A DNA stretch of 64,000 nucleotides from Candidatus Methylomirabilota bacterium (GTDB taxonomy: Bacteria; Methylomirabilota; Methylomirabilia; Rokubacteriales; CSP1-6). Both the position numbers and the translations under genes were made by a program. The notes beneath the pieces were generated by a model. It saw nothing but the letters and a program-made list of their open reading frames with translations. It was not told the DNA's origin and did no database searches. Below are positions 15,580 through 60,005 of this stretch, piece after piece. The DNA lies in NCBI GenBank assembly GCA_046727155.1, contig JBKPCB010000014.1, positions 22,695 through 86,694 on the forward strand, in the 5' to 3' direction. Numbering within the stretch: the first letter of the stretch is position 1; every line of letters begins with the position of its first letter.

Positions 15580-16230
15580 ATGAGCGCCACGAAACGGGAC
15601 GCAGCCGGGACCCGCGCGCGGCCGGCCGCAGACCCCGAAAGCCTCGAGGGCTTCCTCGAGGCGCTGGCCGGCACCTCGCCGACACCCGCCGGCGGCGCGG
15701 CTGGGGCGCTCACCGGAGCGCTTGCGGCTGCCCTTCTGAGCATGGTCTGCCGCGTGACGGCGCGGCGCGACCGGTCGGCCTCCGACTTGCCGAGGCTCGC
15801 CGCGACGGCAGACGAGCTTCGGACGACGCTGAGCCGACTCGTCGCCGAGGACACGGACGCCTACCAAGGGGTGCTCGACGCGCGGCGAGGATCCACCGCG
15901 ACGCCAGCAGCCGTCCAGTCGGCGCTCGTGCGGGCCACTGAGGTCCCCCTCGAGCTGGCGAGGCTGAGCGGGTCGCTGCTGGGGCTGTGCGAAAGGGTGC
16001 TCCCACAGGCCCGTGCGAGTGTACTGAGCGACCTTGGCGTGGCCGCGGCGCTCGCCCGGGCGGCGCTCGAGGCCGCCGCAATCACGGTCCGGGCCAACCT
16101 CGTGGGCGTGATCGATGTGAGGTTCGTCGATGCGGCAGCGACCAAACTGGACCGCCTCCTCGCCGAGGGGCAGACGGCGCACCACCGGATCGGCGAGATG
16201 ATCATCAAGCGAGTTGGACGTCCCGACTAA
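15580..16230 (+). CDS. cyclodeaminase/cyclohydrolase family protein (formiminotransferase-cyclodeaminase C-domain / methenyl-THF cyclohydrolase FchA-like)
   Basis: ~216-aa all-alpha protein. Ala/Leu-rich pattern matches FTCD_C family members. The longer ORF 15412 overlaps GntR out of frame. Confidence 0.6.
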   Translation: MSATKRDAAGTRARPAADPESLEGFLEALAGTSPTPAGGAAGALTGALAAALLSMVCRVTARRDRSASDLPRLAATADELRTTLSRLVAEDTDAYQGVLDARRGSTATPAAVQSALVRATEVPLELARLSGSLLGLCERVLPQARASVLSDLGVAAALARAALEAAAITVRANLVGVIDVRFVDAAATKLDRLLAEGQTAHHRIGEMIIKRVGRPD

Positions 16231-16250: not shown

Positions 16251-17137
16251 TGGCGGAGACAAAGCCCGCAGAGCAGCCGAAACCCCGCAAGAAGATCACG
16301 ATTCCCTCCCTGATGGACAAGAAGGCGCGGAAGGAGCCGATCACGATGCTGGCCGTCTACGACTACCCGACGTCGATCATCGCCGACCGCATCGGGATCG
16401 ACGTGCTCTGCACCAGCGACACGGGCGGCATGGTGCTCTTCGGCCACGAGAGCACCGAGACGGTGACCTACGAGGAAGTGCTGTTCATGACCCAGGGCAT
16501 GGCCCGCGGCTCGAAATTCGGCCTGCGGATGACGGACATGCCCTACATGAGCTACCACTACTCCGAGGAGCAGGCGATTCGGAACGCGGCCCGCTTCGTC
16601 AGCGAGGGCCGGGCCGAGGTCATGAAGTGCGAAGGCAATAAGCACCACGCCAAGTACATCGGCGCCATCGTCCGCGCCGGCATCCCGGTGATGGGCCACA
16701 TCGGCATCACGCCCATGCGGGTGGCCCAGCTCGGGGGCTTCAGCGCCCAAGGAAAAACAGCGGAGCGGGCAGCCGAGCTGGTAGAGGACGCCAAGGCGAT
16801 GGTCGACGCGGGGTGCTTCTCCATCCTGTGCGAGGTGACCACCTCGGAGGTGTGTGAATACCTGGCCGACACGCTGCCGGTGCCCGTGATCAGCCTGGGC
16901 GCGGGCAACAAGGCCGACGGCGTGCACATCATCACTTCCGACCTGTTCAAGTTCTACGACCGTCACACGCCACGCCACTCCAAGGTGTATATGGAGATCT
17001 TCCCGGTCATTCAGAAGGTCCTGCAGGACTACCACGACGACGTCGTGGGCCGTCGGTACCCGGGCCCCGAGCATACGGTGTTCATGAAGGAAGAGGAGCT
17101 CAAGCGGTTCCGCGACATCGTCGGTTGGCACAAGTAG
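16251..17137 (+). CDS. panB: 3-methyl-2-oxobutanoate hydroxymethyltransferase (ketopantoate hydroxymethyltransferase) family
   Basis: Conserved PanB blocks (TMLAVYDYPTS, DVLCTSDTGGMV, GHIGITPM, VISLGAG). RBS AAGGAGGAAGG 6 nt upstream of the ATG. Confidence 0.85.
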
Positions 17138-17277
17138 GCGTAGACGGGCCGCGCGGCTGTCCGCCCGCGCGCTGCGAACCGCCTGAACGGTGGTCGGAGA
17201 CGAATGGCCCGGCGAGAGGCGCCGATCGCGAGGTCCGAGCCGTGATCGTCGCCTCCGCCGACAGTACCTGATCCGTG
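17135..17277 (+). repeat. possible degenerate copy D (panB stop through MFS start)
   Basis: Shares GTGG…GATCGCGAG…GTCCGAG blocks and the stop-to-start placement. Overall identity is only ~60 % with gaps. Confidence 0.3.
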
Positions 17278-20016: not shown

Positions 20017-21291
20017 CTAGGCCAGCATGTCGTTCCAGATGCTCTGAGCCCAGCCGACGGCGTGCTGGCCCCACGCCTCGCTTTGCGACGGCGTGAGCTT
20101 CTGCTCGATTTGGACGACCTTCCCATTCTCGATTTTGTAGGCATTGACCACCGCGATCGCTTCGCGGTCATTCACCCAGCTATAGCAGGTGTTGCCCGGC
20201 GCCATGGCCGGCGGCTCCTTGCCGTTGAGCTGGTGGACGATGGCAATGGCGGCGATCTTGCCCATGTTGTTTGCCACGTTGCCCGACTTGGGGACCGGCA
20301 GCCCGATGGTCGAGTCACCGATCACATGGACCCCCTTCTGCTTGACCGACTCGTATGTGAGGTGGTTGACCTCGCACCAACGCTTGTCGGCGCCGACGAG
20401 ATCCGCCTGAACGGCGATGGTCCCGGCCCGCTGCGGCGGGATCAGATTGATGACGTCGTAGCGGACGCGGTCGAACTCGGTGCGCACTTCCTTCACGCCG
20501 GGATCCACGCCGACGACCTTGCTCGACGGCCGGTACTCGATATTGGGATACGCCTGCCACGCCGCCCGGAAGAGTGCCGTCTTGGACACGATGTTCTGAT
20601 TGGCGTCGAGCACAATCAGTTTGGATTTGGGCTTGTTGTTCTTGAGGTACCAGGCGACCTGGCAGATGCGCTCGTAGGGGCCCGGCGGGCAGCGGTAGGC
20701 CACCGGCGGCACCGTGAGGACGAAGACGCCGCCGTCGGACATCGAGTGCAGCTGCGCGGCGAGGGCCACGGTCTGAGGCCCCGCCTTCCAGGCATGGAGC
20801 ACCTTGTCCTGGTTCTGGGCCAGGCCCTCGACCTGCTCCCACTGGAACTCCACGCCCGGCGAGACGACGAGCCGGTCGTATTCGAGATAGCCCTCGCCCA
20901 CCCGCACGCGCTTGCGGTCGGGCTCGATCGCAGTCGCCATCTCGTGGATGATCTTCACGTCGTTGCGGCGTAAGCCGGCATACGTGAAGGTCAGGCTCTC
21001 GATCTTCCGGACGCCGCTCAGCACGAGATTGCTGAACGGGCACGAGACGAACTCCCGGTTGGGCTCGATCAGGACAACCTCGATCTTGGGATCGAGCAGC
21101 CGGACGTATTTGGCCGCCGTGGCCCCGCCCCACCCGCCGCCGATGACGACCACCCGCTGCCCCGACTTGGGGGCGACGTCGCCCTTGACCGTGGCCGCGC
21201 ATCCGGCCACGCCGGCTCCACCCAGCAGTCCGAGACCCGCGCCGATCGCCGACGCCTTGAGGAACTCCCTGCGAGAGGCGTTCATGGTCAT
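20017..21291 (-). CDS. fccB: flavocytochrome c sulfide dehydrogenase flavoprotein subunit (FccB/SoxF family)
   Basis: Tat signal (SRREFLKASAIG). FAD-binding GGGWGG Rossmann motif. Pyridine-nucleotide-disulfide oxidoreductase family, 424 aa. Confidence 0.8.
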   Translation of the reverse strand: MTMNASRREFLKASAIGAGLGLLGGAGVAGCAATVKGDVAPKSGQRVVVIGGGWGGATAAKYVRLLDPKIEVVLIEPNREFVSCPFSNLVLSGVRKIESLTFTYAGLRRNDVKIIHEMATAIEPDRKRVRVGEGYLEYDRLVVSPGVEFQWEQVEGLAQNQDKVLHAWKAGPQTVALAAQLHSMSDGGVFVLTVPPVAYRCPPGPYERICQVAWYLKNNKPKSKLIVLDANQNIVSKTALFRAAWQAYPNIEYRPSSKVVGVDPGVKEVRTEFDRVRYDVINLIPPQRAGTIAVQADLVGADKRWCEVNHLTYESVKQKGVHVIGDSTIGLPVPKSGNVANNMGKIAAIAIVHQLNGKEPPAMAPGNTCYSWVNDREAIAVVNAYKIENGKVVQIEQKLTPSQSEAWGQHAVGWAQSIWNDMLA

Positions 21292-39215: not shown

Positions 39216-39652
39216 AGCGCTCATACGTGGACCTGGCCGTAGGCGTGTTCGTCCTGATCGGCATCTTGGCATTGGGCTGGCTTTCCGTTAAACTCGGCAA
39301 GGTCGAGATCTGGAACACGGGCGGCTACACGGTCACCGCCGACTTCCCTTCCGTCGGAGGGCTCAAGGATGGCTCCTCCGTAGAGATCGCCGGTGTCGAG
39401 GTCGGGCGCGTGAGCAGGATCGCGCTAGCCGACTACCAAGCGCGCGTCTTTATCGCGATGCGGCAGGGCGTCAAGCTGCAGGAGGACTCGATCGCGTCGA
39501 TCAAGACCAAAGGCCTGATCGGCGAGAAGTACATCCGGATCAACCCGGGTGGCTCCGAGAAGATCATCCCCCCCAACGGGAAGATCCGCGAGGTTGAGCC
39601 GCCGGTGGACTTCGAGGAGTTGCTATCCAAATATATCTTCGGCAAAGTCTAA
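39212..39652 (+). CDS. mlaD: MlaD-type MCE-domain substrate-binding protein
   Basis: N-terminal TM followed by an MCE domain. ATGA overlap with mlaF. Confidence 0.8.
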   Translation: MKRSYVDLAVGVFVLIGILALGWLSVKLGKVEIWNTGGYTVTADFPSVGGLKDGSSVEIAGVEVGRVSRIALADYQARVFIAMRQGVKLQEDSIASIKTKGLIGEKYIRINPGGSEKIIPPNGKIREVEPPVDFEELLSKYIFGKV

Positions 39653-39677
39653 AGGGGGGCTGCGTGTGGAGGCTTCG

Positions 39678-40328
39678 ATGACTCGCGTTCGCGTAGGGGC
39701 GGTGGCGCTGGCGTGTCTGCTGACGGTGTCGCTCGGCGGGGTGGCGTGGGCCGGTTTGCCCACCGATCAGCTCAAGGGCGCCATCGACCGTGTGATCAGG
39801 ACGCTCGAGGACCCAAGCCTCAAGGGCGAGGGCAGGGTGATCGACCGACGCCAGGCCGTCCGCAAGATCGCCAACGAGATCTTCGACTTCACCGAGATCG
39901 CCCGCCGGTCCATGGCGCGCCACTGGCAGCCGCTGAGCGACGCCCAGCGCACGGAGTTCGTCGGCCTCTTCGGCGACCTGCTGGAGCGCTCCTACATCTC
40001 GAAGATCGAGCTGTACGGTGGCGAGAAGATTCTGTACACGAACGAGCGCGTGGACGGTGACTTCGCCACGGTGGGCACCAAGATCATCACCAAGAACGGG
40101 ACCGAGGTGCCAGTGGACTACAAGATGCTCAGAAAGAGCGACCACTGGCTGGTCTACGACGTCAACATCGAGGGCGTTAGCCTCGTCTCGAACTACCGCA
40201 CCCAATTCAACAAGATCATCCAGACGACGTCCTACAACGAGCTGGTGAGCAAGCTCCGGACCAAGCAGGACGAGCTGCTGGCCGAGGACGCAGCCCAGCG
40301 CAAGAAGGCGACGCCGACCAAGAACTAG
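39678..40328 (+). CDS. MlaC/Ttg2D-like periplasmic lipid-binding protein (HpnM-like)
   Basis: Signal peptide. Toluene-tolerance Ttg2 family pattern. RBS GTGGAGG. Stem-loop downstream. Confidence 0.7.
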   Translation: MTRVRVGAVALACLLTVSLGGVAWAGLPTDQLKGAIDRVIRTLEDPSLKGEGRVIDRRQAVRKIANEIFDFTEIARRSMARHWQPLSDAQRTEFVGLFGDLLERSYISKIELYGGEKILYTNERVDGDFATVGTKIITKNGTEVPVDYKMLRKSDHWLVYDVNIEGVSLVSNYRTQFNKIIQTTSYNELVSKLRTKQDELLAEDAAQRKKATPTKN

Positions 40329-40367
40329 ACGCCCCGGTGCTCCCGGGAGCCCGACAGATTCGCCGCC

Positions 40368-40397
40368 GGGGGAAGCGGGTTCCAGCCTGCTTCCCCC
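40368..40397 (+). terminator. stem-loop GGGGGAAGC-N12-GCTTCCCCC between the MlaC-like gene and ppm
   Basis: 9-bp perfect stem. Could be a terminator or attenuator separating the mla genes from the phosphonate genes. Confidence 0.3.
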
Positions 40398-40418
40398 GCG
40401 GCCTATAAGGAGTTCGGT

Positions 40419-42086
40419 ATGACGAAGGCTGCACTGCTCCGCGCCACGCTCCGCCGGCTGGGCCTCGTGCCCATGGTGGGCGCTCATGACGCCCTCTCGG
40501 CCAAGCTCATCGAGGCCGCCGGGTTTCCCGTGATCTGGTCCTCGAGCTTCGCCGTCTCCGCGGCTCAGCGCGCCGTTCCGGACGTGAATCTCCTGACCAT
40601 GACCGAGAATCTCGAGGCTGCCAAGTACATCAACGACGCCGTGACGGCCCCCGTGATCGCGGACGTCGACAACGGCTACGGCAATGTAGTCAATGTGGTG
40701 CGCACCGTGGAAGAGTACGAGCGCGCCGGAATCGCCGGCATCTGCATGGAGGACAACGTCTTCCCGAAGAAGTGCAGCCTCTACCCTGGAATGAAGCGGG
40801 AGCTGCTGTCGCTCGACGAATTCGCGGGCAAGATCCGGGCGGCCGTCGCGACCCGGCAGGATCCCGACTTCCTGCTCATCGCTCGCGTGGAAGCGCTCAT
40901 CGCCGGCTGGGGCATGAAGGAGGCCCTGCGTCGGGCCCAAGCCTACGCCGATGCGGGCGCCGACATGATCCTCATGCACTCCAAGTCCAAGACTGCCGCT
41001 GAGATTCTGGAGTTCATGCGCCTCTGGGACCGTCCGACGTCGGTCGTCGTGGTGCCGACGCTCTACCCGTCGGTGACCTTCGAGGAGCTCGAAGGTGCGG
41101 GCGTCAAGATGGTGATCTGGGCCAACCAGGTGCTGCGCGGCGCCGTGCAGGGCATGCAGGCCACGCTCGAGACGCTTGCGCGGGAGCGCCGGCTGGACGC
41201 GCTCGACCCCCACATCGTACCGCTCGAGGAGATCTACCGCCACGTCGGCGTGGAAGAATTCAAGGCCATCGAGGAGGCGTATCTGCCGGCGGCCGCGGGC
41301 CAGGCCAAGGCCGTCATCATCGCGGCGGGCTCGGGCAAGTCGCTGCTGCCGCTCACCGAGGACCGGCCCAAGTGCATGCTGGACATCAAGGGTCGTACGA
41401 TCCTGGAGCGCCAGATCGAGACGCTGCGCGCCTGCGGCGTGCACGACATCGTGGTGGTCCGCGGCTACAGGAAAGAGATCGTCACGGCGCCCGGCGTCCG
41501 CTTCTATGACAACGACCGCTACGACGAGACCGGCGAGCTGGCGTCGCTATTCAGCGCCGAGGCCGAGCTTGCCGGCCCGTTGCTGTTCCTCTATTCGGAT
41601 ATCATGTTCGAGCAGGCGGTGCTCGAGAAGCTCCTGCGCGCCGAAGCGGACTGCGCCGTCGTGGTGGACCGCGCCTGGGTGGATCAGCGCGACCGGCTGA
41701 TGTCCCTCGGCAAGCCACTCGACCTGGTGATCACGAAGAACGCGCCTCCCGCGGGCTTGCGCTCGCTGCCGGCGGCAGGCGACGACACGCTCCTGGCGGT
41801 CGGCCAGCGCATCCGCCCGGAGCAGGCCACGGGCGAGTTCATCGGGCTGGCGCGGTTCTCGGAGCGTGGCGCCCAGCTCGTCAGCGAGACCTACCGCGAG
41901 TGCCGCGCCGCGGCCGCCGGCCGCTTCCACGAGGCCGACAGCCTGGAGCAGGGCGCCTTCACGGATCTGCTGCAGGAGCTGGTTGAGCGTGGACACACGG
42001 TGGCCTGTGTGGATGTCTACAAGGGTTGGCTCGAGATCGACACCTTCGAGGATTACCAGCGCGCATGGGCCGAGATAAAGAAGTAG
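40419..42086 (+). CDS. ppm: phosphoenolpyruvate phosphomutase fused to C-terminal nucleotidyltransferase (cytidylyltransferase-like) domain
   Basis: N-terminal ~290 aa has PEP mutase/ICL-family blocks (EDNVFPKKCSL, ILMHSK, IARVEALIAGWG). C-terminal ~260 aa has an NTP_transferase G-rich loop (IIAAGSGKSL). Confidence 0.85.
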   Translation: MTKAALLRATLRRLGLVPMVGAHDALSAKLIEAAGFPVIWSSSFAVSAAQRAVPDVNLLTMTENLEAAKYINDAVTAPVIADVDNGYGNVVNVVRTVEEYERAGIAGICMEDNVFPKKCSLYPGMKRELLSLDEFAGKIRAAVATRQDPDFLLIARVEALIAGWGMKEALRRAQAYADAGADMILMHSKSKTAAEILEFMRLWDRPTSVVVVPTLYPSVTFEELEGAGVKMVIWANQVLRGAVQGMQATLETLARERRLDALDPHIVPLEEIYRHVGVEEFKAIEEAYLPAAAGQAKAVIIAAGSGKSLLPLTEDRPKCMLDIKGRTILERQIETLRACGVHDIVVVRGYRKEIVTAPGVRFYDNDRYDETGELASLFSAEAELAGPLLFLYSDIMFEQAVLEKLLRAEADCAVVVDRAWVDQRDRLMSLGKPLDLVITKNAPPAGLRSLPAAGDDTLLAVGQRIRPEQATGEFIGLARFSERGAQLVSETYRECRAAAAGRFHEADSLEQGAFTDLLQELVERGHTVACVDVYKGWLEIDTFEDYQRAWAEIKK

Positions 42087-42198
42087 TGCGAGCCGAGACA
42101 CGGCCGGGTTGTGTCGGGCGTGTGGCAGTTCGAGGTGAGGGCCGAAGGCACGAGCCGAGGGCTGAGTTGATCGCGAGCGGTGAAATGGTTCGAGAATG
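42084..42198 (+). repeat. MIRU-like intergenic repeat, copy A (stop codon of ppm through start codon of ppd)
   Basis: More than 90 % identical over ~115 nt to copy B, including TAGTGCGAGCCGAGACACGGCCGGG…GTCGGGCGTGTGGCAGTTCGAGG…GGCACGAGCCGAG…ATCGCGAGCGGTGAAATGGT.CGAGAAT. Confidence 0.7.
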
Positions 42199-43359
42199 AT
42201 TTCAGGTAAAGAGTTCGTCGCCCTGCTCGAAGCGCAGGGCTACGACTTCTTCTCGGGCGTTCCCTGCTCGCTCATGGAGAGCGTCATCAGTGCGCTCGAA
42301 TCCCATCCCCGGCTGCCCTACGTGCCGGCGGTGCGCGAGGACGTGGCCGTCGGGCTGGCCGCCGGCGCCTGGCTGGCGGGTCGCGCGCCGATGGTGCTGA
42401 TGCAGAACTCCGGGCTCGGCACGAGCCTTAACGCCCTGGTCTCGCTGTCCCTGATGTACCGGCTGCCCGCCCTGCTGCTGGTGACCTGGCGCGGCTACGA
42501 GGGCAAGGACGCGCCCGAGCATCTCGTCATGGGCGAGATCTCCCCGAGCCTGCTCGGCCTCATCGGCATTCCCCACCGCGTGCTCACGGCCGAGCGCGTC
42601 GGAGAGGACATCGCCTGGGCGCGCGCGGAATCCGAGCGCCTGAGTCAACCCGTGGCGCTGTTGCTGCCGCCTCGTGTAGTCGAGGCAGGCGCTGAAGGAC
42701 CCTTCGAGCCCTCGCCCGTCGCGCCGCCGGCAGCACCAGGCGGCGCCGCCGCTTCGGCCGCGCCTCGGCCTCCGCAGATCTCGAGGATGCAGGCGCTGCG
42801 GGCCGCGCTCGCCGCCGTCGCCGATGAGCCCGTCGTTCACGCCAATGGCTACATCTGCCGCGAGTCCTTCTCGGTCAGCGACCGCCCGCAGAATTTCTAC
42901 ATGATCGGCTCCATGGGCTTGGCCTCGGCCATCGCCCTCGGTGTGGCGCTGGCGCGGCCCGGCCGCAAGACGGTGATTTTCGACGGCGACGGCAATCTCC
43001 TGATGAATCTGGGCATCCTGCCGATGATCGGCGGCGGCCCGGTCATGGGTCGGGGCCGGCCACGGAATCTCGTTCACGTGGTCTTCGACAACGGCCTCTA
43101 CGGCTCGACGGGCAATCAGCTCTCGCCCTCGCGACACGTGGACCTGGATCGCCTGGCGCTGGCCGCGGGATACGCCTCGGCGCTGGCGGTGACCGAGCCC
43201 GCGGCGATCACGCGGGCGGTCTCTGCCGCGCTGGCCTCGGATGGCCCGCACTTCGTCCTGGCGCGCGTCACGGCCGAGGAGCAACCGGCGCCGCGCATTC
43301 CCTACCCGCCCCAGCAGATCCGCGATCGCTTCCGCGCGGCGCTGGGAGGGCTTGGATGA
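42196..43359 (+). CDS. ppd: phosphonopyruvate decarboxylase (ThDP-dependent)
   Basis: Ppd-type N-terminus (MISGKEFVALLEAQGYDFFSGVPCS). ThDP-binding GDG…N motif (FDGDGNLLMNLG). Confidence 0.85.
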   Translation: MISGKEFVALLEAQGYDFFSGVPCSLMESVISALESHPRLPYVPAVREDVAVGLAAGAWLAGRAPMVLMQNSGLGTSLNALVSLSLMYRLPALLLVTWRGYEGKDAPEHLVMGEISPSLLGLIGIPHRVLTAERVGEDIAWARAESERLSQPVALLLPPRVVEAGAEGPFEPSPVAPPAAPGGAAASAAPRPPQISRMQALRAALAAVADEPVVHANGYICRESFSVSDRPQNFYMIGSMGLASAIALGVALARPGRKTVIFDGDGNLLMNLGILPMIGGGPVMGRGRPRNLVHVVFDNGLYGSTGNQLSPSRHVDLDRLALAAGYASALAVTEPAAITRAVSAALASDGPHFVLARVTAEEQPAPRIPYPPQQIRDRFRAALGGLG

Positions 43360-44096
43360 AGGCCATCCTGCTGGCCGCCGGCGTCGCGCGCCGGCTGGCC
43401 CCGCTGACGGACCACACCCACAAGTGCCTGCTGCCGGTCGGCGGCCGGTCGCTGCTGGACCGCATGCTGGACGCGCTCGCCGGTTGCGGCGTCGCCGAGA
43501 CCGTGATCGTGGTGGGACACTGCCAGGATCAGGTCCGCGCGGCCGCGGGGACGGGCCGGGCCGCCATGCGCATCAGGTACGTGGAGAATCCAGAGTACCA
43601 AAAGGGCTCGATCCTCTCGCTCTGGCGTGCCCGCGGCACGCTCCTCGAGGACAGCACGCTGGTGATGGACGCCGACGTGCTGTTCCCCACGGTCTTCCTC
43701 GAACGGCTCATTGCCTCGCCCACGGCAAGCGCGCTGCTCCTCGACCGCGGCTTCAGCGACACCGGCGAGGAAGTCAAGCTCTACGCGGTCGGAGACCGGG
43801 TCATCGCCCTGGGTAAGAAGTTCGTTCCAGCGAAATGGGACGTGATCGGCGAGGGCATCGGGTTCTTCAAATGCAGCGCGCTTCACGCGCCCGAGTACAT
43901 CCGGCTGCTGGGCGAGTCCATCCAGGAAACCGGCGGCGCCAACGAGTACGAGGACGCCCTGCACCGGCTGCTGGCGCGCGTTCCCGTGGGCTGGGTGGAC
44001 GTCACCGGTCTGCCCTGGACCGAGGTGGACTTCGCCGAAGATCTGCGGCGCGCCGACGCCGAAGTCCTGCCCAAGATCGAACGCCTCGGGCATTGA
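43356..44096 (+). CDS. nucleotidyltransferase (LicC / sugar- or alcohol-phosphate cytidylyltransferase-like)
   Basis: ILLAAGVARRL G-loop at the N-terminus. 246 aa. ATGA overlap with ppd. Confidence 0.75.
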   Translation: MKAILLAAGVARRLAPLTDHTHKCLLPVGGRSLLDRMLDALAGCGVAETVIVVGHCQDQVRAAAGTGRAAMRIRYVENPEYQKGSILSLWRARGTLLEDSTLVMDADVLFPTVFLERLIASPTASALLLDRGFSDTGEEVKLYAVGDRVIALGKKFVPAKWDVIGEGIGFFKCSALHAPEYIRLLGESIQETGGANEYEDALHRLLARVPVGWVDVTGLPWTEVDFAEDLRRADAEVLPKIERLGH

Positions 44097-44097
44097 T

Positions 44098-45288
44098 GTG
44101 GCCGGGGCAGTTGTCTACTTCCCCGAGGTCGGCAGCCACGCCGTAGCTCCCCGCGTCGTCGCCGGCCGCTCGCTCGCCGTGCGCGCGCTGGTCTCGGCCT
44201 TCCGCGCCGGGGCGGCCACGATCGCGGTTCCGCTCGCGCTCCGGGACGAAGCCGTGGAGCGAGCGCTGGCACGCATGCCCGCTCTCGCCGCCGCCATCCG
44301 TTGGCTCGATCCCGCTCGGTCCGAGCCGCCGCCGCCGGACGGAGAGCTGTTCCTCTTCGTCCCCGTCTCGGCGGTGGTCGACGCCCTTTCGCTCCGCGCC
44401 CTGCTGACTCCCGCACCGCCACCTCAAGGCGCCATTCTGTCCGGCTCGGTCGAGGCCGGAGCGCCGGTCGTGCTGGCCTCGACGACCCTGGCCGCCCGGC
44501 TCTGGAAGGAGGCGGCAGACGGGCGGCCGCTCGGCGTCGAGCTGGCCCGGCACGCAGGCGAAGCCGGGCTCGAGCCCCGAGCGGCGGCCGGCGTGTTCGC
44601 GGTCGTGAAGGGCGAGGCCGGACTCGCCCGGGCCGAGGATGCGCTCTACGAGCGCGTCGGAACCGGTCTGGACTCCGGCATCGACCGATTGCTCCACCGC
44701 CGGTGCTCGCGCTGGATCACCCGCGTCCTCGTGCGCACACCGGCGACGCCGAATCAGGTCAGCGTGCTCAGCTTTCTGATCGGGTGCGCCTCGATCTGGT
44801 GCTTTTGGAACGCGACCGAGGCAAGCGCGGCGTGGGGGCTGGCGCTCTATGCGCTGGCGTGCATCGTGGACCACACGGACGGCGAGCTCGCGCGGCTGAC
44901 GTTCCAAGAGACGCACTTCGGCGCCCAGCTCGACTGGGTTATCGACAACATCATCCACGTCGGCGTCGTATTCGGGATGGCGGTGAGCGCTGGAGGACCC
45001 GTGGCAGTCGCGGTCGGCATCGCGGCCGTCGTCGGCGTGGCACTGAGCGCCTGGTTCGCCCGCATCCTGCCCCACGAGCTCGAGGTGGGCGAAGCCGTGG
45101 GCGGAGCCCTGAAGGACATGGGCAACCGCGATCTGTTCTACCTGCTGCTGCTGGGCTTCGTGCTCTTCCGCTGGACCGCGCCGCGCTTGCTGCTCCCGCT
45201 GGCCATCGTCGTCGCCCTCGGCTCGCAGGCATATTGGATCGGCTGCCTGAATCGCATCCGCCACTCCCGCGCCGCAGGGATGCCGTGA
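44098..45288 (+). CDS. CDP-alcohol phosphatidyltransferase with ~190-aa N-terminal domain of unknown function
   Basis: C-terminal membrane domain carries D(x)2DG(x)2AR…G(x)3D(x)3D (DHTDGELARL…FGAQLDWVIDN). The N-terminal half lacks a nucleotidyltransferase G-loop. GTG start. Confidence 0.7.
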   Translation: MAGAVVYFPEVGSHAVAPRVVAGRSLAVRALVSAFRAGAATIAVPLALRDEAVERALARMPALAAAIRWLDPARSEPPPPDGELFLFVPVSAVVDALSLRALLTPAPPPQGAILSGSVEAGAPVVLASTTLAARLWKEAADGRPLGVELARHAGEAGLEPRAAAGVFAVVKGEAGLARAEDALYERVGTGLDSGIDRLLHRRCSRWITRVLVRTPATPNQVSVLSFLIGCASIWCFWNATEASAAWGLALYALACIVDHTDGELARLTFQETHFGAQLDWVIDNIIHVGVVFGMAVSAGGPVAVAVGIAAVVGVALSAWFARILPHELEVGEAVGGALKDMGNRDLFYLLLLGFVLFRWTAPRLLLPLAIVVALGSQAYWIGCLNRIRHSRAAGMP

Positions 45289-57633: not shown

Positions 57634-57760
57634 GTAATCCCTCCTATTCTCGGACCATTTCACCGCTCGCGATTCACCTAGCACTCGGCTCGTGCCTGCG
57701 GCCCTCCCCTCGAACTGCCACACGCCCGACAAAGCCCCGGCCGTGTCTCGGCTCGCACTA
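57631..57760 (-). repeat. MIRU-like intergenic repeat, copy B (stop codon of MFS gene through start codon of small gene)
   Basis: Near-identical to copy A. Begins at the TAG stop and ends at the ATG, with a GGAGGG RBS. Confidence 0.7.
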
Positions 57761-58951
57761 CCTTTTGCCTGCTGCGAGCCGGCGCGATTCGGGCAGCGCC
57801 CGGAGCCAGAGCGCGCAGGCCAGGCCCAGCACGCCGCCTACGCCGAGGACCGAGAAGGCCCATCCCCAGCCGGCCGCGCCGGCTTTGCGACCGCCGAAGA
57901 AGTCCAGCACCATGCCGAAGACCAGCGGCGCGACCGCGCCGGCCCCGAATCCAAGCAGCGAGCGCACCGCCAGGGCGGCGCCGAGCCGGCTCGGCGTCAC
58001 GGTCTCGGTGAGGCCGGTCGAGTAGACCGAAGAGTCGCCCACCGCTGAAAACCCGTAGACGCTGCCGACGAGCATGATGAGCAGGATCGGCGCCATGAGC
58101 AGCCAGCCGAACATGAACGAGCAGAGGGTGCTCACTGCCATCATGCCGGCGATGACCGCGGTGCGCCCCCAGCGATCCGAGAGCCAGCCGCCGGCGCCCG
58201 AGGCCGCGGCGCCCATGACGTGGAAGAGCGCCGACAGGCTGGCGCCGAGCCCGGCCGACCGTTCTGGCGCGGTGCCGTGGACGGCCAGCGCCGCCGCCAT
58301 GAAGGCCGGCGTCCACGCCCACATGCCGAGCAACTCCCAGGAGTGGAACACGTAGCCGGCCACCATGAGCTGGGCCGGCCGGTTGCCCGACAGATCGGCG
58401 TGGAAGCTGAAGCCGGCCGAGCGCGCTGGGGGGCTGCCGAGATCGCCGCGGAAGAGCAGTAGGGCCAGGATGAGGCAGACGAGCGGGCCCAAAGCGAGCA
58501 CGAAGACAGCCGAGCGCCAGCCCGACCGCGCCACGACGAGGCCGCCGACCACCAGCGCCACAACATACCCCAATGAGCTTGAAGCCAGGAACCACCCCAC
58601 CGCATTGCCGCGACGGGCGGGCTCGAAGCGCGCCGAGATTAGCATGACGCCCGGCGTATAGATGCCCGCCAGCGCCACCGCGAGCGCCGTGAAGAGCAGG
58701 AGCCCCGAGAGATGACTGTGGGCGACCAGCGGGATCAGGAAGGCCACCCCCGTCGCCGCCCCCGCGCCGCCGATGAACAGCGCGCGAGGGTTGATGTAGT
58801 CGGCGAGGGCCGACACCACGACGAGCGACACGGCTGTTCCGAGCTGAAAGCCGGAGGAGATCGAGCCGGCCGCCGTGGAGGACAGATTCCATTCGGGCTG
58901 CACGACCGAGAGAATGGTCGGGTACGCCATGAACATCGTGGAGCCGGCCAC
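57758..58951 (-). CDS. MFS transporter
   Basis: 12 TM helices with MFS loop motifs. 397 aa. Confidence 0.8.
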   Translation of the reverse strand: MAGSTMFMAYPTILSVVQPEWNLSSTAAGSISSGFQLGTAVSLVVVSALADYINPRALFIGGAGAATGVAFLIPLVAHSHLSGLLLFTALAVALAGIYTPGVMLISARFEPARRGNAVGWFLASSSLGYVVALVVGGLVVARSGWRSAVFVLALGPLVCLILALLLFRGDLGSPPARSAGFSFHADLSGNRPAQLMVAGYVFHSWELLGMWAWTPAFMAAALAVHGTAPERSAGLGASLSALFHVMGAAASGAGGWLSDRWGRTAVIAGMMAVSTLCSFMFGWLLMAPILLIMLVGSVYGFSAVGDSSVYSTGLTETVTPSRLGAALAVRSLLGFGAGAVAPLVFGMVLDFFGGRKAGAAGWGWAFSVLGVGGVLGLACALWLRALPESRRLAAGKR

Positions 58952-59810: not shown

Positions 59811-59842
59811 CTCCGACGGCAGGAGTGAGGAATGCCGGGGCA

Positions 59843-59995
59843 GATGACGAGCCAGACGAGGCCCGAGGGAGGAGCCGACCGGAGGCGTACGCGGTTGTAC
59901 GCTGAGGAACGGCGACGACCGAGAACGTGGCAGTTCGAGCTGAGCGGCCCTGCCGCGAGGCGAGGGCTGGGTAAATCTGGCGAAATCAGATGCCC
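59843..59995 (+). repeat. diverged copy C of the same element, between the VOC and SDR genes (opposite orientation to flanking genes)
   Basis: ~70 % identity to A over the GTGGCAGTTCGAG…CGAGGGCTG…AAAT…ATG core. Confidence 0.45.
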
Positions 59996-60005
59996 CGGCA
60001 TGGGA

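Follow-up and report, generated by a model that had tools for sequence, protein, structure and literature searches.

Introduction

Repetitive extragenic palindromic (REP) sequences of the GTAG-tagged kind carry an unpaired GTAG tag, or GTGG in one family from Opitutus terrae, and a stem of 6–13 bp that occurs in complementary variants, contains frequent G-T pairs and closes on a short loop (PMC3733652). They are found between unidirectional or convergent open reading frames (ORFs), near the 3' end of the upstream one, and their termini often provide a TAG stop codon (PMC3733652). They also form head-head, tail-tail and head-tail dimers, and clusters of them can be reiterated in tandem together with flanking DNA (PMC3733652). 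Here we compare with these sequences a set of intergenic repeats, copies A, B and C, in a stretch of 64,000 nucleotides of DNA from a Candidatus Methylomirabilota bacterium (contig JBKPCB010000014.1, positions 22,695 to 86,694 of the forward strand). We refer to this whole stretch as the window. A sequence-only reading of the window had proposed that A and B are copies of a conserved element running from stop codon to start codon, with a more diverged copy C and a possible degenerate copy D, and that this element is either an intra-operon repeat like the mycobacterial interspersed repetitive units (MIRUs) or a cis-regulatory RNA leader.

Our analysis indicates that A and B probably belong to a new family of GTAG-tagged, non-coding composite repeats that resemble REPs and the bacterial interspersed mosaic elements (BIMEs), and that C represents another carrier class within the same modular superfamily of Methylomirabilota/Rokubacteria. 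The elements are of the ordinary bacterial mobile or "junk" repeat kind and are not a dedicated regulatory leader. The view that they are dispersed repeats at the DNA level, which the sequence-only reading had favoured, is supported by many further copies, by covariation and by differences in occupancy among strains.

Copies A, B and C in the window

By their Pfam domains, the genes around copy A encode a fusion of phosphoenolpyruvate (PEP) mutase and NTP transferase (pepM) and, downstream, the thiamine pyrophosphate (TPP) enzyme phosphonopyruvate decarboxylase (ppd). The genes around copy B encode a major facilitator superfamily (MFS) transporter and then a DUF4286 protein. The two sets of flanks are thus unrelated, as had been proposed. 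Copy C lies between a glyoxalase-family gene and a short-chain dehydrogenase/reductase (SDR) gene, both on the minus strand, and its core is antisense to both. The ppd and DUF4286 proteins of the window are 93–96% identical to proteins named Methylomirabilota; an exact-protein look-up with the ppd protein returned no record. The elements and their parts are listed here with their window coordinates.

42083..42195, plus strand: copy A, a complete A-type composite element in the pepM/ppd spacer (104.8 bits with the A-type nhmmer profile)
42083..42086, plus strand: GTAG head of copy A, with the TAG at 42084-42086 ending the PEP mutase-NTP transferase gene upstream
42087..42121, plus strand: hairpin 1 of copy A, TGCGAGCCGAG-ACACG.CCGG...TCGG.CGTGT, present in the minimum free energy (MFE) structure
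42122..42176, plus strand: core module of copy A (covariance model 72.7 bits, E 1.3e-21)
42122-42125 and 42126-42164, plus strand: GTGG head and rod hairpin (39 nt) of the copy A core, the rod with two CGAG/CGAG internal loops and a 3-nt apical loop
42173..42195, plus strand: tail of copy A, GCGAGCGGTGAAATGGTTCGAGA, conserved and non-palindromic, ending directly at the ppd ATG (42196)
57646..57761, minus strand: copy B, an A-type element; the MFS transporter stop TAG is at 57760-57758 and the DUF4286 ATG at 57633-57631
57667-57721, minus strand: core of copy B (covariance model 54.8 bits)
59832..60001, plus strand: copy C, a C-type palindromic carrier with one core and an 11-bp terminal inverted repeat (TIR), ATGCCGGGGCA/TGCCCCGGCAT
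59927..59981, plus strand: core of copy C (covariance model 76.8 bits, E 5.7e-23; repeat finder D9/I2, 76% identity)

In a global alignment, copy A and the reverse complement of copy B share 104 identities over 116 columns. Both copies are real; their identity of about 90% is slightly under the figure of more than 90% given before. The repeat finder resolved the similarity into two pairs of arms, 42106-42197 with 57646-57737 (92 nt, 89%) and 42078-42108 with 57736-57766 (31 nt, 94%). The stop-to-start extent that had been described for both copies holds at both ends of A. Copy B does start at the TAG, but its homology ends at 57646, which is 12 nt short of the ATG; these last 12 nt before the DUF4286 ATG (AGGAGGGATTAC) are that gene's own Shine-Dalgarno region and lie outside the shared sequence.

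The similarity among A, B and C exceeds chance. The core motif has three exact matches in the window compared with a mean of 1.05 matches at up to 3 mismatches in shuffled sequences, and a covariance model run over the whole window with filters off gave exactly three strong matches (C 76.8, A 72.7 and B 54.8 bits). The part of C that is homologous to A and B is the core only (51–55 nt). Thus, C was correctly seen as related through its 55-nt core (76%), but the rest of it is a different palindromic carrier and its true span of 170 nt (59832-60001) is longer than had been noted. The RNA fold of C has a free energy of -92.9 kcal/mol (z=-5.7). Copy D (17135-17277) did not hold up, with no nhmmer match at E<=0.01 and no covariance-model match at E<=10 with filters off. 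This 137-nt spacer is GC-rich and has a few CGAG motifs, and it shows no detectable kinship to the repeat family.

The sequence-only reading had also paired GAAAT…ATTTC arms around the ppd start codon. These arms exist at locus A, where ATTTC lies in codons 2-3 of ppd, but neither B nor the element that L117, another species, carries at locus A has them. The pairing is peculiar to locus A and was rejected as a family trait.

Distribution of the repeat family

Loci with L-numbers are sampled from related genomes and metagenomes and total about 0.8 Mb. A first scan covered one genome per species from 185,579 species with the pattern GTGGCAGTTCGAG-NN-GAG-N11-CGAG, which has 20 specified bases and is common to A, B and C. 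This returned 71 loci, and 70 of them are in eight metagenome-assembled genomes (MAGs) of Candidatus Methylomirabilota/Rokuibacteriota. SMAG_U510 has 40 matches (on 34 contig loci, a lower bound), SMAG_U11643 has 13, JACORX01 has 11 and JBKOVG01 has 8. The sole match outside this group is on a Kaiserbacteria contig with unrelated flanks, which is about what is expected by chance for 20 specified bases. A second scan in metagenomes, using the core followed by N35-60 and GAGCGGTGAAA, added 12 loci, among which L082 is an ortholog of locus A and L078, L080 and L081 are orthologs of locus B. With nhmmer, about 150 cores were found in the sampled loci. The expectation that there are further copies genome-wide was thus borne out in related genomes, in at least eight MAGs. 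The MAG counts and the three copies in the 64-kb window show that the elements are dispersed and of high copy number, as are GTAG-tagged REPs and BIMEs, and the repeat family is specific to Methylomirabilota/Rokubacteria.

Because A and B are only 15.4 kb apart, their similarity could be attributed to a recent local segmental duplication or to an assembly artefact. This is already refuted by the unrelated flanks and by the occurrence of the same elements at orthologous loci on independent metagenome contigs (L078, L080, L081 and L082) and in at least eight MAGs, and the probability that we leave to it is negligible.

Rfam 15 gave no matches at the gathering threshold over the window, and around A there were only chance-level matches at E<=10. 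No relevant paper emerged from literature searches on repeats in Rokubacteria, Methylomirabilota and Methylomirabilis. To our knowledge, the family is previously undescribed and the phylum is without reported REPs in the literature searched.

Structure and covariation of the core hairpin

The core consensus that follows the GTGG head is 39 nt long: CAGTTC-GA-G(C/G)T-GA-GCGGC-NNN-GCCGC-GA-G(G/C)C-GA-GGGCTG. It forms three helices of 6, 3 and 5 bp (14 pairs) with a 3-nt apical loop. Between the helices are two symmetrical CGAG/CGAG internal loops, which could form tandem G-A pairs. Across 92 distinct cores, 94.7% of cells are in standard pairs and 0 of 500 shuffles reach the observed values. As a control, sliding the partners by 1–3 columns left only 30–50% pairing. 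Five pairs show double-sided, compensatory changes, amounting to 67 cells, so that the covariation which had been proposed as a check is present in the core. At position 14/34, for instance, the pair is C-G in 75 cores, G-C in 12 and U-A in 2, and this pair splits the subfamilies into GGTGAG...GCCGAG (A and B) and GCTGAG...GGCGAG (C). RNAalifold applied to 14 A-type copies independently recovered the core helix. A GC-rich stem-loop with complementary stem changes is also what characterizes GTAG-tagged REPs and BIMEs.

We considered whether this structure acts at the level of RNA or DNA. The core has three conserved U-G wobbles, so its fold is strand-specific. Copy A folds better in sense than in antisense (-44 vs -26.6 kcal/mol) because of its G-U and G-A pairs; the fold z-scores are modest for both A (-2.1) and B (-1.1). 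On their own strand the cores form about 13.2 of 14 pairs compared with about 10.7 of 14 on the complement, and this is equal across all gene orientations. By crude GC3-based gene calls (GC3 being GC content at third codon positions), 23 distinct cores are in sense and 31 in antisense between unidirectional genes (54 in all), 15 are between convergent genes and 6 between divergent genes. Because pairing is strand-specific whatever the direction of transcription, the data point away from a constraint on mRNA and towards one on a single DNA strand, or towards simple inheritance.

Two other structures were rejected. A closing helix of 5' CGAGCC with 3' GGTTCG in A-type elements is in the MFE structure of A and is unsupported across copies. 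The sequence GTGGCAGTTCGAG was inspected as a tRNA-like T-arm and as a sigma-54 promoter, and its complementarity and spacing are unfit for either.

Gain, loss and length variation at orthologous sites

The rplK-rplA spacer provided a series of sites with and without the element. The ribosomal protein L1 homologs compared here are the top matches, all at least 95% identical, with no distant relatives among them. In L084-L104, where L1 is 95–100% identical, the spacers are 12, 60, 61, 77, 85, 89, 128, 131, 133, 165 and 182 nt long. The empty site has a 12-nt spacer in which GTGTAG is followed directly by GGAGACCCTGACATG (e.g., L097:2407-2418). The 60-nt spacer carries an insert of 48 nt (the A0 form, which is an A-type element lacking the core), the 77-nt spacer has a 17-nt internal duplication and the spacers of 128–133 nt include a core. 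An 85-nt spacer is seen at L098:2251-2335, and the 165-nt spacer (L089:1961-2125) consists of 3.0 tandem 52-nt units that take in the final 9 nt of rplK. All inserts (48 to about 170 nt) lie exactly between TAG and GGAG with the junction TAG/TGCGAG... and no target duplication. Even among strains that encode an identical L1 (P0055), the site can be empty or filled.

Similar variation was observed at the three loci of the window. Locus A is filled in the window, L082, L115 and L117 and empty in L113 and L114. At the empty sites (L113:2480-2530 and L114:2480-2530) pepM ends in TAA and overlaps ppd by 22 nt. At the filled sites the pepM stop is TAG and, in the window, L115 and L117, ppd has a new start, ATG AT(T/C) TCN. 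The N-terminus of the ppd protein is consequently MGRD(K/Q)KI(T/S)GK where the element is absent and MISGK from the new ATG where it is present. Locus B is filled in L078, L080 and L081 and empty in L106, where 26 nt follow the TAG, and in L111, where the stop codon is TGA and the spacer has 18 nt. Locus C is empty in L105, where the glyoxalase-SDR spacer is 4 nt. The proposed comparison of occupancy among related strains therefore gave clear differences in the rplK-rplA series and at loci A, B and C.

Copy A and the element at the B locus of L080 are 95.7% identical. Orthologous copies are 94–96.5% identical and the flanking coding DNA 95.5–96.6%. Because the identity between loci equals the divergence of orthologs and of coding DNA, either the subfamily reached several loci recently or its copies are being homogenized. 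Together, these data demonstrate spread between loci, strain-level presence and absence, and tandem variation, and show that orthologous sites gain and lose the elements on a strain-to-species time scale.

Three observations were made near these loci. In L105:2647-2805 (MAG SMAG_U510), the first ~45 nt of the DUF4286 gene and its Shine-Dalgarno sequence are duplicated on either side of a core-less A0 element, which suggests unequal recombination or slippage around the repeat. Near the DUF4286 ortholog of L106 are genes for IS630-type (DDE_3) and ISL3 transposases (L106:2416-3842), and near that of L111 is an island with an integrase, an N6/N4 methylase and an XcyI-type restriction enzyme (L111:8341-12108). 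Both are unrelated to the repeats.

The length variation bears on the comparison with MIRUs. In the strict sense, a MIRU-type element would be a coding mini-cistron that is translationally coupled to both neighbours and varies as a variable number tandem repeat (VNTR). Copy A does contain an ORF from a GTG at 42086 (TAGTG overlap) to a TGA at 42197-42199 (ATGA overlap), and the elements are intercistronic, in sense orientation and vary in tandem at rplK-rplA (52 nt x 3.0, L089). However, the ORF is broken by a 1-nt indel in L082, the ortholog of A, and in B, and both overlaps are found in only 1 of 14 copies. The length differences are not multiples of 3 (108–116 nt), conservation tracks base pairing (compensatory G-C to C-G) rather than codons, no tetranucleotide direct repeats are seen at rplK-rplA and the host belongs to a different phylum than Mycobacterium. 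The frame is not conserved among the 14 copies, so a MIRU-type ORF was rejected and we consider true MIRU-type cistrons exceedingly improbable. The term "MIRU-like" that had been applied to the elements thus fits their intercistronic position, sense orientation and VNTR-like variation, but not the unit ORF, which exists in copy A only, nor the flanking direct repeats, which are missing.

Position relative to genes and a possible role in RNA

A-type elements were found at 11 independent loci:

pepM-ppd
MFS-DUF4286
rplK-rplA (many genomes)
rpmJ-rpsM (two tandem units)
hemW-like gene followed by hrcA
two ATP-binding cassette (ABC) permease junctions
L073/L079
upstream of an SDR gene
L054, 5'-untranslated-region-like, downstream of a TTGACA-N17-TAACTAT promoter-like site
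L003, the one antisense case

At 10 of the 11 loci the element is in sense between a stop and a start codon, and it usually reaches from the stop codon of the upstream gene to a point shortly before the Shine-Dalgarno sequence or start. A twelfth locus, L021, has an A0-type element without a core upstream of an ATG and stands outside this sense count, since its flanking gene strands are not in the tally. Neither promoter- nor terminator-like signals were detected when A, B and C were scanned, and the elements are thus probably co-transcribed within operons.

The copies begin exactly at a TAG stop codon because the TAG of the head often serves as the stop of the upstream gene. The GTAG head is also present where it is not a stop codon (L041 and L076), and in L084 the TAG of rplK is followed by a separate GTAG. 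TAG is rare in a genome with GC3 near 0.9, and insertion is tolerated mainly at gene ends. Being extragenic, between unidirectional or convergent genes, by the 3' end of the upstream gene and with the tag as its TAG stop is the position described for REPs and BIMEs.

The downstream genes are functionally unrelated (ppd, DUF4286, rplA, rpsM, hrcA, ABC permeases and SDR), which argues against a dedicated leader. This, the empty and filled sites in strains with identical L1 and the lack of an Rfam match speak against the cis-regulatory leader or riboswitch that had been offered as the second possibility.

A more general alternative is that the A-type element is a functional intercistronic RNA module that spread by its usefulness, for instance as an mRNA processing or stability hairpin, through ribosome stalling or translational coupling, or as a protein-binding rod. 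In such a module the tail, with its Shine-Dalgarno-like GGTGA and its ATG, would re-initiate or couple downstream translation. Several observations agree with this. The 10 of 11 sense, stop-to-start loci include the housekeeping pairs rplK-rplA and rpmJ-rpsM and a site upstream of hrcA; all 14 aligned copies have the same tail sequence, GAGCGGTGAAA, and the tail is always placed 0–40 nt ahead of a start codon; folding is better on the sense strand; and terminator-like signals are lacking. In addition, the copy A tail holds a mini-ORF, ATG GTT CGA GAA TGA, that stops on the ppd ATG (ATGA), and in several other copies a mini-ORF either terminates no more than about 10 nt from the downstream start or continues into it in frame. 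By contrast, the length added to the rplK-rplA site of strains with identical L1 is 0, 48, 73 or 116 nt, so the element can be dispensed with there, and loci A, B and C are empty in relatives. The core is antisense more often than sense (31 vs 23) with its own-strand pairing unchanged, the fold z-scores of A and B are modest and no Rfam family matches. The mini-ORF is not conserved either, with ACG or ATC in place of ATG in L049 and L073 and with varying length and frame, and the spacing from GGTGA to ATG is only 1–2 nt. On balance we regard an RNA module as unlikely, though of the rivals it is the one to which we give the most weight.

Another possibility is that the A-type element is a mobile "intercistronic cassette" in which rods with tandem G-A loops would be bound by a lineage-specific protein and the tail GAGCGGTGAAATGGTTCGA, with its Shine-Dalgarno-like GGTGA and ATG, would set re-initiation or mRNA processing of the downstream gene. 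We consider this quite unlikely. If it were true, expression of Rokubacterial operons, including those for ribosomal proteins, would be tunable by insertion, loss and tandem expansion of repeats. A function of the conserved tail, if there is one, would provide a case of a mobile expression module.

Carriers, modules and tandem arrays

The repeats are modular, with one core hairpin in three types of carrier (A, C and T) and in tandem arrays. In the A-type the order is (G)TAG, TGCGAGC(C/T)GAG, hairpin 1, the core (GTGG head and rod), GATC and the tail GCGAGCGGTGAAATGGTTCGA(R)AAT. These elements are 108–116 nt long, the typical composite being about 113 nt with a tail of about 23 nt. Nine of 14 copies have the head GTAG, and the heads of the others are one base off (GTAT, GTCG, GCAG and GACG). 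The GT(A/G)G tag of REPs and BIMEs is thus present as GTAG in the A-type head and as GTGG in the core, the latter being ascertainment-biased, since the GTGG head and the 5' half of helix P1 belonged to the search pattern. The tail GAGCGGTGAAA has 2 matches in the window against 0.01 expected. In other subfamilies the hairpin 1 stem differs, with GCGGC/GCCGC at the same place. The A0 form is represented by the first copy in L072 and by L085 and L105.

C-type elements are long imperfect palindromes of 140–270 nt, with ends such as GTGCCGGGCCAA...TTGGCCCGGCAC and with one core or two cores 81 nt apart. Their terminal arms of 11–14 bp vary between copies in a compensated fashion. Read from the other end, a C-type element begins with (C)TAG followed by TGCCGGGCC; 10 of 18 lie after a TAG, and 7 of these TAGs are the stop of a co-oriented upstream gene. 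The orientation of C against its flanking genes, which had been used to argue for a DNA-level repeat, is consequently a weaker argument than it seemed, since the "head" of this class is at the other end and the class is preferentially co-oriented with flanking genes.

The shape of the C-type raises the possibility that these repeats are classical miniature inverted-repeat transposable elements (MITEs) derived from a DDE-transposase insertion sequence (IS) such as IS630 or IS5, mobilized through their TIRs and flanked by a TA or (C)TAG target duplication. C-type elements have a suitable size and 11–14-bp TIRs with one end usually at CTAG, apparent TAG...TAG flanks are seen in window B, L049, L073, L074, L076 and L041, and IS630-type (DDE_3) and ISL3 transposase genes are found in related contigs, e.g., L106. 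However, the apparent 3' TAG is the final T of the element joined to the AGGAGG of the next Shine-Dalgarno sequence, at a varying distance from the tail, and the comparison of empty and filled rplK-rplA sites led us to reject TAG as a target-site duplication. A-type elements have no real TIRs (about 6 imperfect nt only), the C-type arms covary without keeping a transposase-binding sequence, and no longer element with the same ends was seen in the sampled loci. Classical MITEs therefore appear very unlikely.

The T-type is a hairpin of about 170 nt flanked by A and T runs, located between convergent genes. Its appearance is that of a bidirectional terminator with the core at the apex. At L033:3685-3865, GAAAAAGGCCCATCTGC...core...GCATCTGGACCTTTTTGA forms a perfect-looking hairpin (-120 kcal/mol, z=-8.5), and other examples are at L008, L012, L016, L020, L023, L035, L040, L066, L067, L069 and L070.

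Head-to-tail arrays of cores with a period of 45 or 81 nt occur in L030, L004, L013, L022, L034, L046, L047 and L064. The array at L030:4973-5103 has 2.9 copies of a 45-nt unit with 98% matches. L055 and L064 are apparently one locus of one MAG assembled with one core in one case and two cores in the other. L084 contains further hairpins (15825-15990 and 20181-20367): its rpoB-rpoC spacer has two copies of a different GC-rich hairpin, GGACGTCGCGGGGCTGGGGCCCCGCCGTCCGAGGCGA, and the spacer upstream of rpsL has a degenerate CGAG-type hairpin. CGAG-punctuated hairpins seem to be general in the spacers of this lineage. In L084 the rpoB, rpoC and tuf genes are split, probably by long-read indel errors.

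Discussion

Taken together, the covariation, the copy number and the gain and loss at orthologous sites are best accounted for by a GTAG-tagged REP/BIME-like repeat. Given this resemblance to REPs, the elements would spread non-autonomously through a single-stranded DNA hairpin intermediate, and a trans-acting HUH/Y1 enzyme, similar to a REP-associated tyrosine transposase (RAYT) or to IS200/IS605 TnpA, would recognize the hairpin. The orientation bias of the A-type would follow from anchoring to a TAG on the coding strand together with selection against polar insertions. Any effects on the stability or translation of neighbouring mRNA would be secondary.

Several points weigh against this classification. 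Neither phmmer with three query sequences nor a scan for the HUH...Y motif revealed a RAYT or IS200-type Y1 transposase in the ~0.8 Mb of sampled loci. The sole weak match of these searches for a RAYT/IS200/IS608-like ORF is in L071 (E=0.054), and it has no Pfam domain. The most conserved part of the A-type is the non-palindromic tail by the start codons, for which a purely selfish model has no account. Occupancy of locus A does not track similarity of ppd, since the site is empty at 91% and 87% identity and filled at 84%. The cores are mostly head-to-tail here, whereas head-head and tail-tail dimers are dominant in most described REP families. The conservation of GTGG and P1 is in part ascertainment, and the orientation statistics are limited by the crude gene calls already mentioned. 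Finally, the unit is larger and more composite than classical REPs of 20–40 bp: the core hairpin measures 39 nt (43 nt if the tag is counted), the recurring unit about 113 nt and C 170 nt. Because of this unit size, a BIME-like mosaic fits better than a single REP. Unit size aside, all GTAG-REP traits that could be tested are found in these elements.

ORFs between inverted cores in L022 and L032 were considered as transposases and rejected; they are nusA/infB/rbfA and ordinary enzymes.

These results add the uncultured, soil-dominant Methylomirabilota/Rokubacteria to the lineages with REP/BIME-like repeats, and the modularity of theirs is unusual, with one core in three carriers. Should a cognate HUH enzyme exist, single-strand DNA transposition would gain a new pair of substrate and enzyme. 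Neighbouring genes receive stop codons from the elements and have their starts remodelled, and pepM and ppd overlap where the element is absent. The length of the rplK-rplA spacer could serve as a strain-typing marker in metagenomes.

The repeats also interrupt assemblies made from short reads and lead gene callers astray. In most copies, one frame of the element (…VAVRGEGRRHEPRAELIASGEMVRE) has no stop codon and therefore invites over-long gene predictions. Public calls for DUF4286 homologs are 112–140 aa (P0122, P0125, P0136, P0152 and P0162) compared with the usual 103 aa, and these calls probably start inside the upstream repeat. The length of P0122 (126 aa), the only one of the five proteins compared, fits an extension into the upstream element.

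On the plus strand of the window around copy A (39549-45288) and in the orthologs L113-L117 are genes for MlaC, PEP mutase-NTP transferase, phosphonopyruvate decarboxylase, an NTP transferase and a CDP-alcohol phosphatidyltransferase, and in the orthologs an LPG_synthase_TM protein comes next. This gene order resembles a pathway for a phosphonate head group or phosphonolipid that is conserved in the lineage.

Comparison with known systems

As judged from described features, the resemblance to MIRUs (Supply et al. 1997, as summarised in PMC3184786) lies in units of 40 to more than 100 nt that occupy intra-operon spacers, are oriented with the genes, touch stop and start codons, can be present or missing at orthologous sites and differ between strains in the number of tandem copies. 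They differ from MIRUs in having no conserved unit-spanning ORF and no flanking tetranucleotide direct repeats, in a conservation that is explained by hairpin pairing and in their phylum.

Correia elements of Neisseria and the enterobacterial repetitive intergenic consensus (ERIC) or intergenic repeat units (IRU) of enterobacteria are likewise intergenic imperfect palindromes of 100–170 nt that are often co-transcribed and are present or absent at orthologous sites. The C-type comes closest to them. Those elements have conserved TIR sequences and, in Correia, a TA duplication, whereas here the arms covary and there is no duplication.

With IS200/IS605 elements, palindrome-associated transposable elements (PATEs) and other HUH/Y1 systems (PMC6006769), the repeats share insertion 3' of a short sequence without duplication and strand-specific imperfect hairpins. 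Unlike IS200/IS605, they have no TnpA, TnpB or full-length parent in the sampled loci, and their hairpins are internal and repeated rather than one subterminal hairpin per end. The GTAG also seems to be part of the element (L041, L076 and L084). The likeness to single-strand transposition of this type is an analogy only.

The closest systems are the GTAG-tagged REPs and BIMEs (Di Nocera et al. 2013, PMC3733652; Nunvar et al. 2010, PMC2817692). The hairpin of the present family is longer, with 14 bp in three helices and two CGAG/CGAG (tandem G-A) loops; the A/B unit is an oriented composite of about 113 nt with a non-palindromic tail by the downstream start; and long terminator-like and TIR-like palindromes also carry the core at their apex. 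Head-to-tail arrangements predominate in the present family. In both the present family and the GTAG-tagged REPs, an unpaired GT(A/G)G tag lies 5' of a GC-rich imperfect hairpin with G-T pairs and a 3-nt apical loop, and subfamilies are defined by complementary stem changes. Both are extragenic and lineage-specific, with the TAG of the tag used as a stop codon, and both occur as singletons, head-to-tail units, reiterated clusters and mosaics with other motifs, as do the BIMEs of E. coli.

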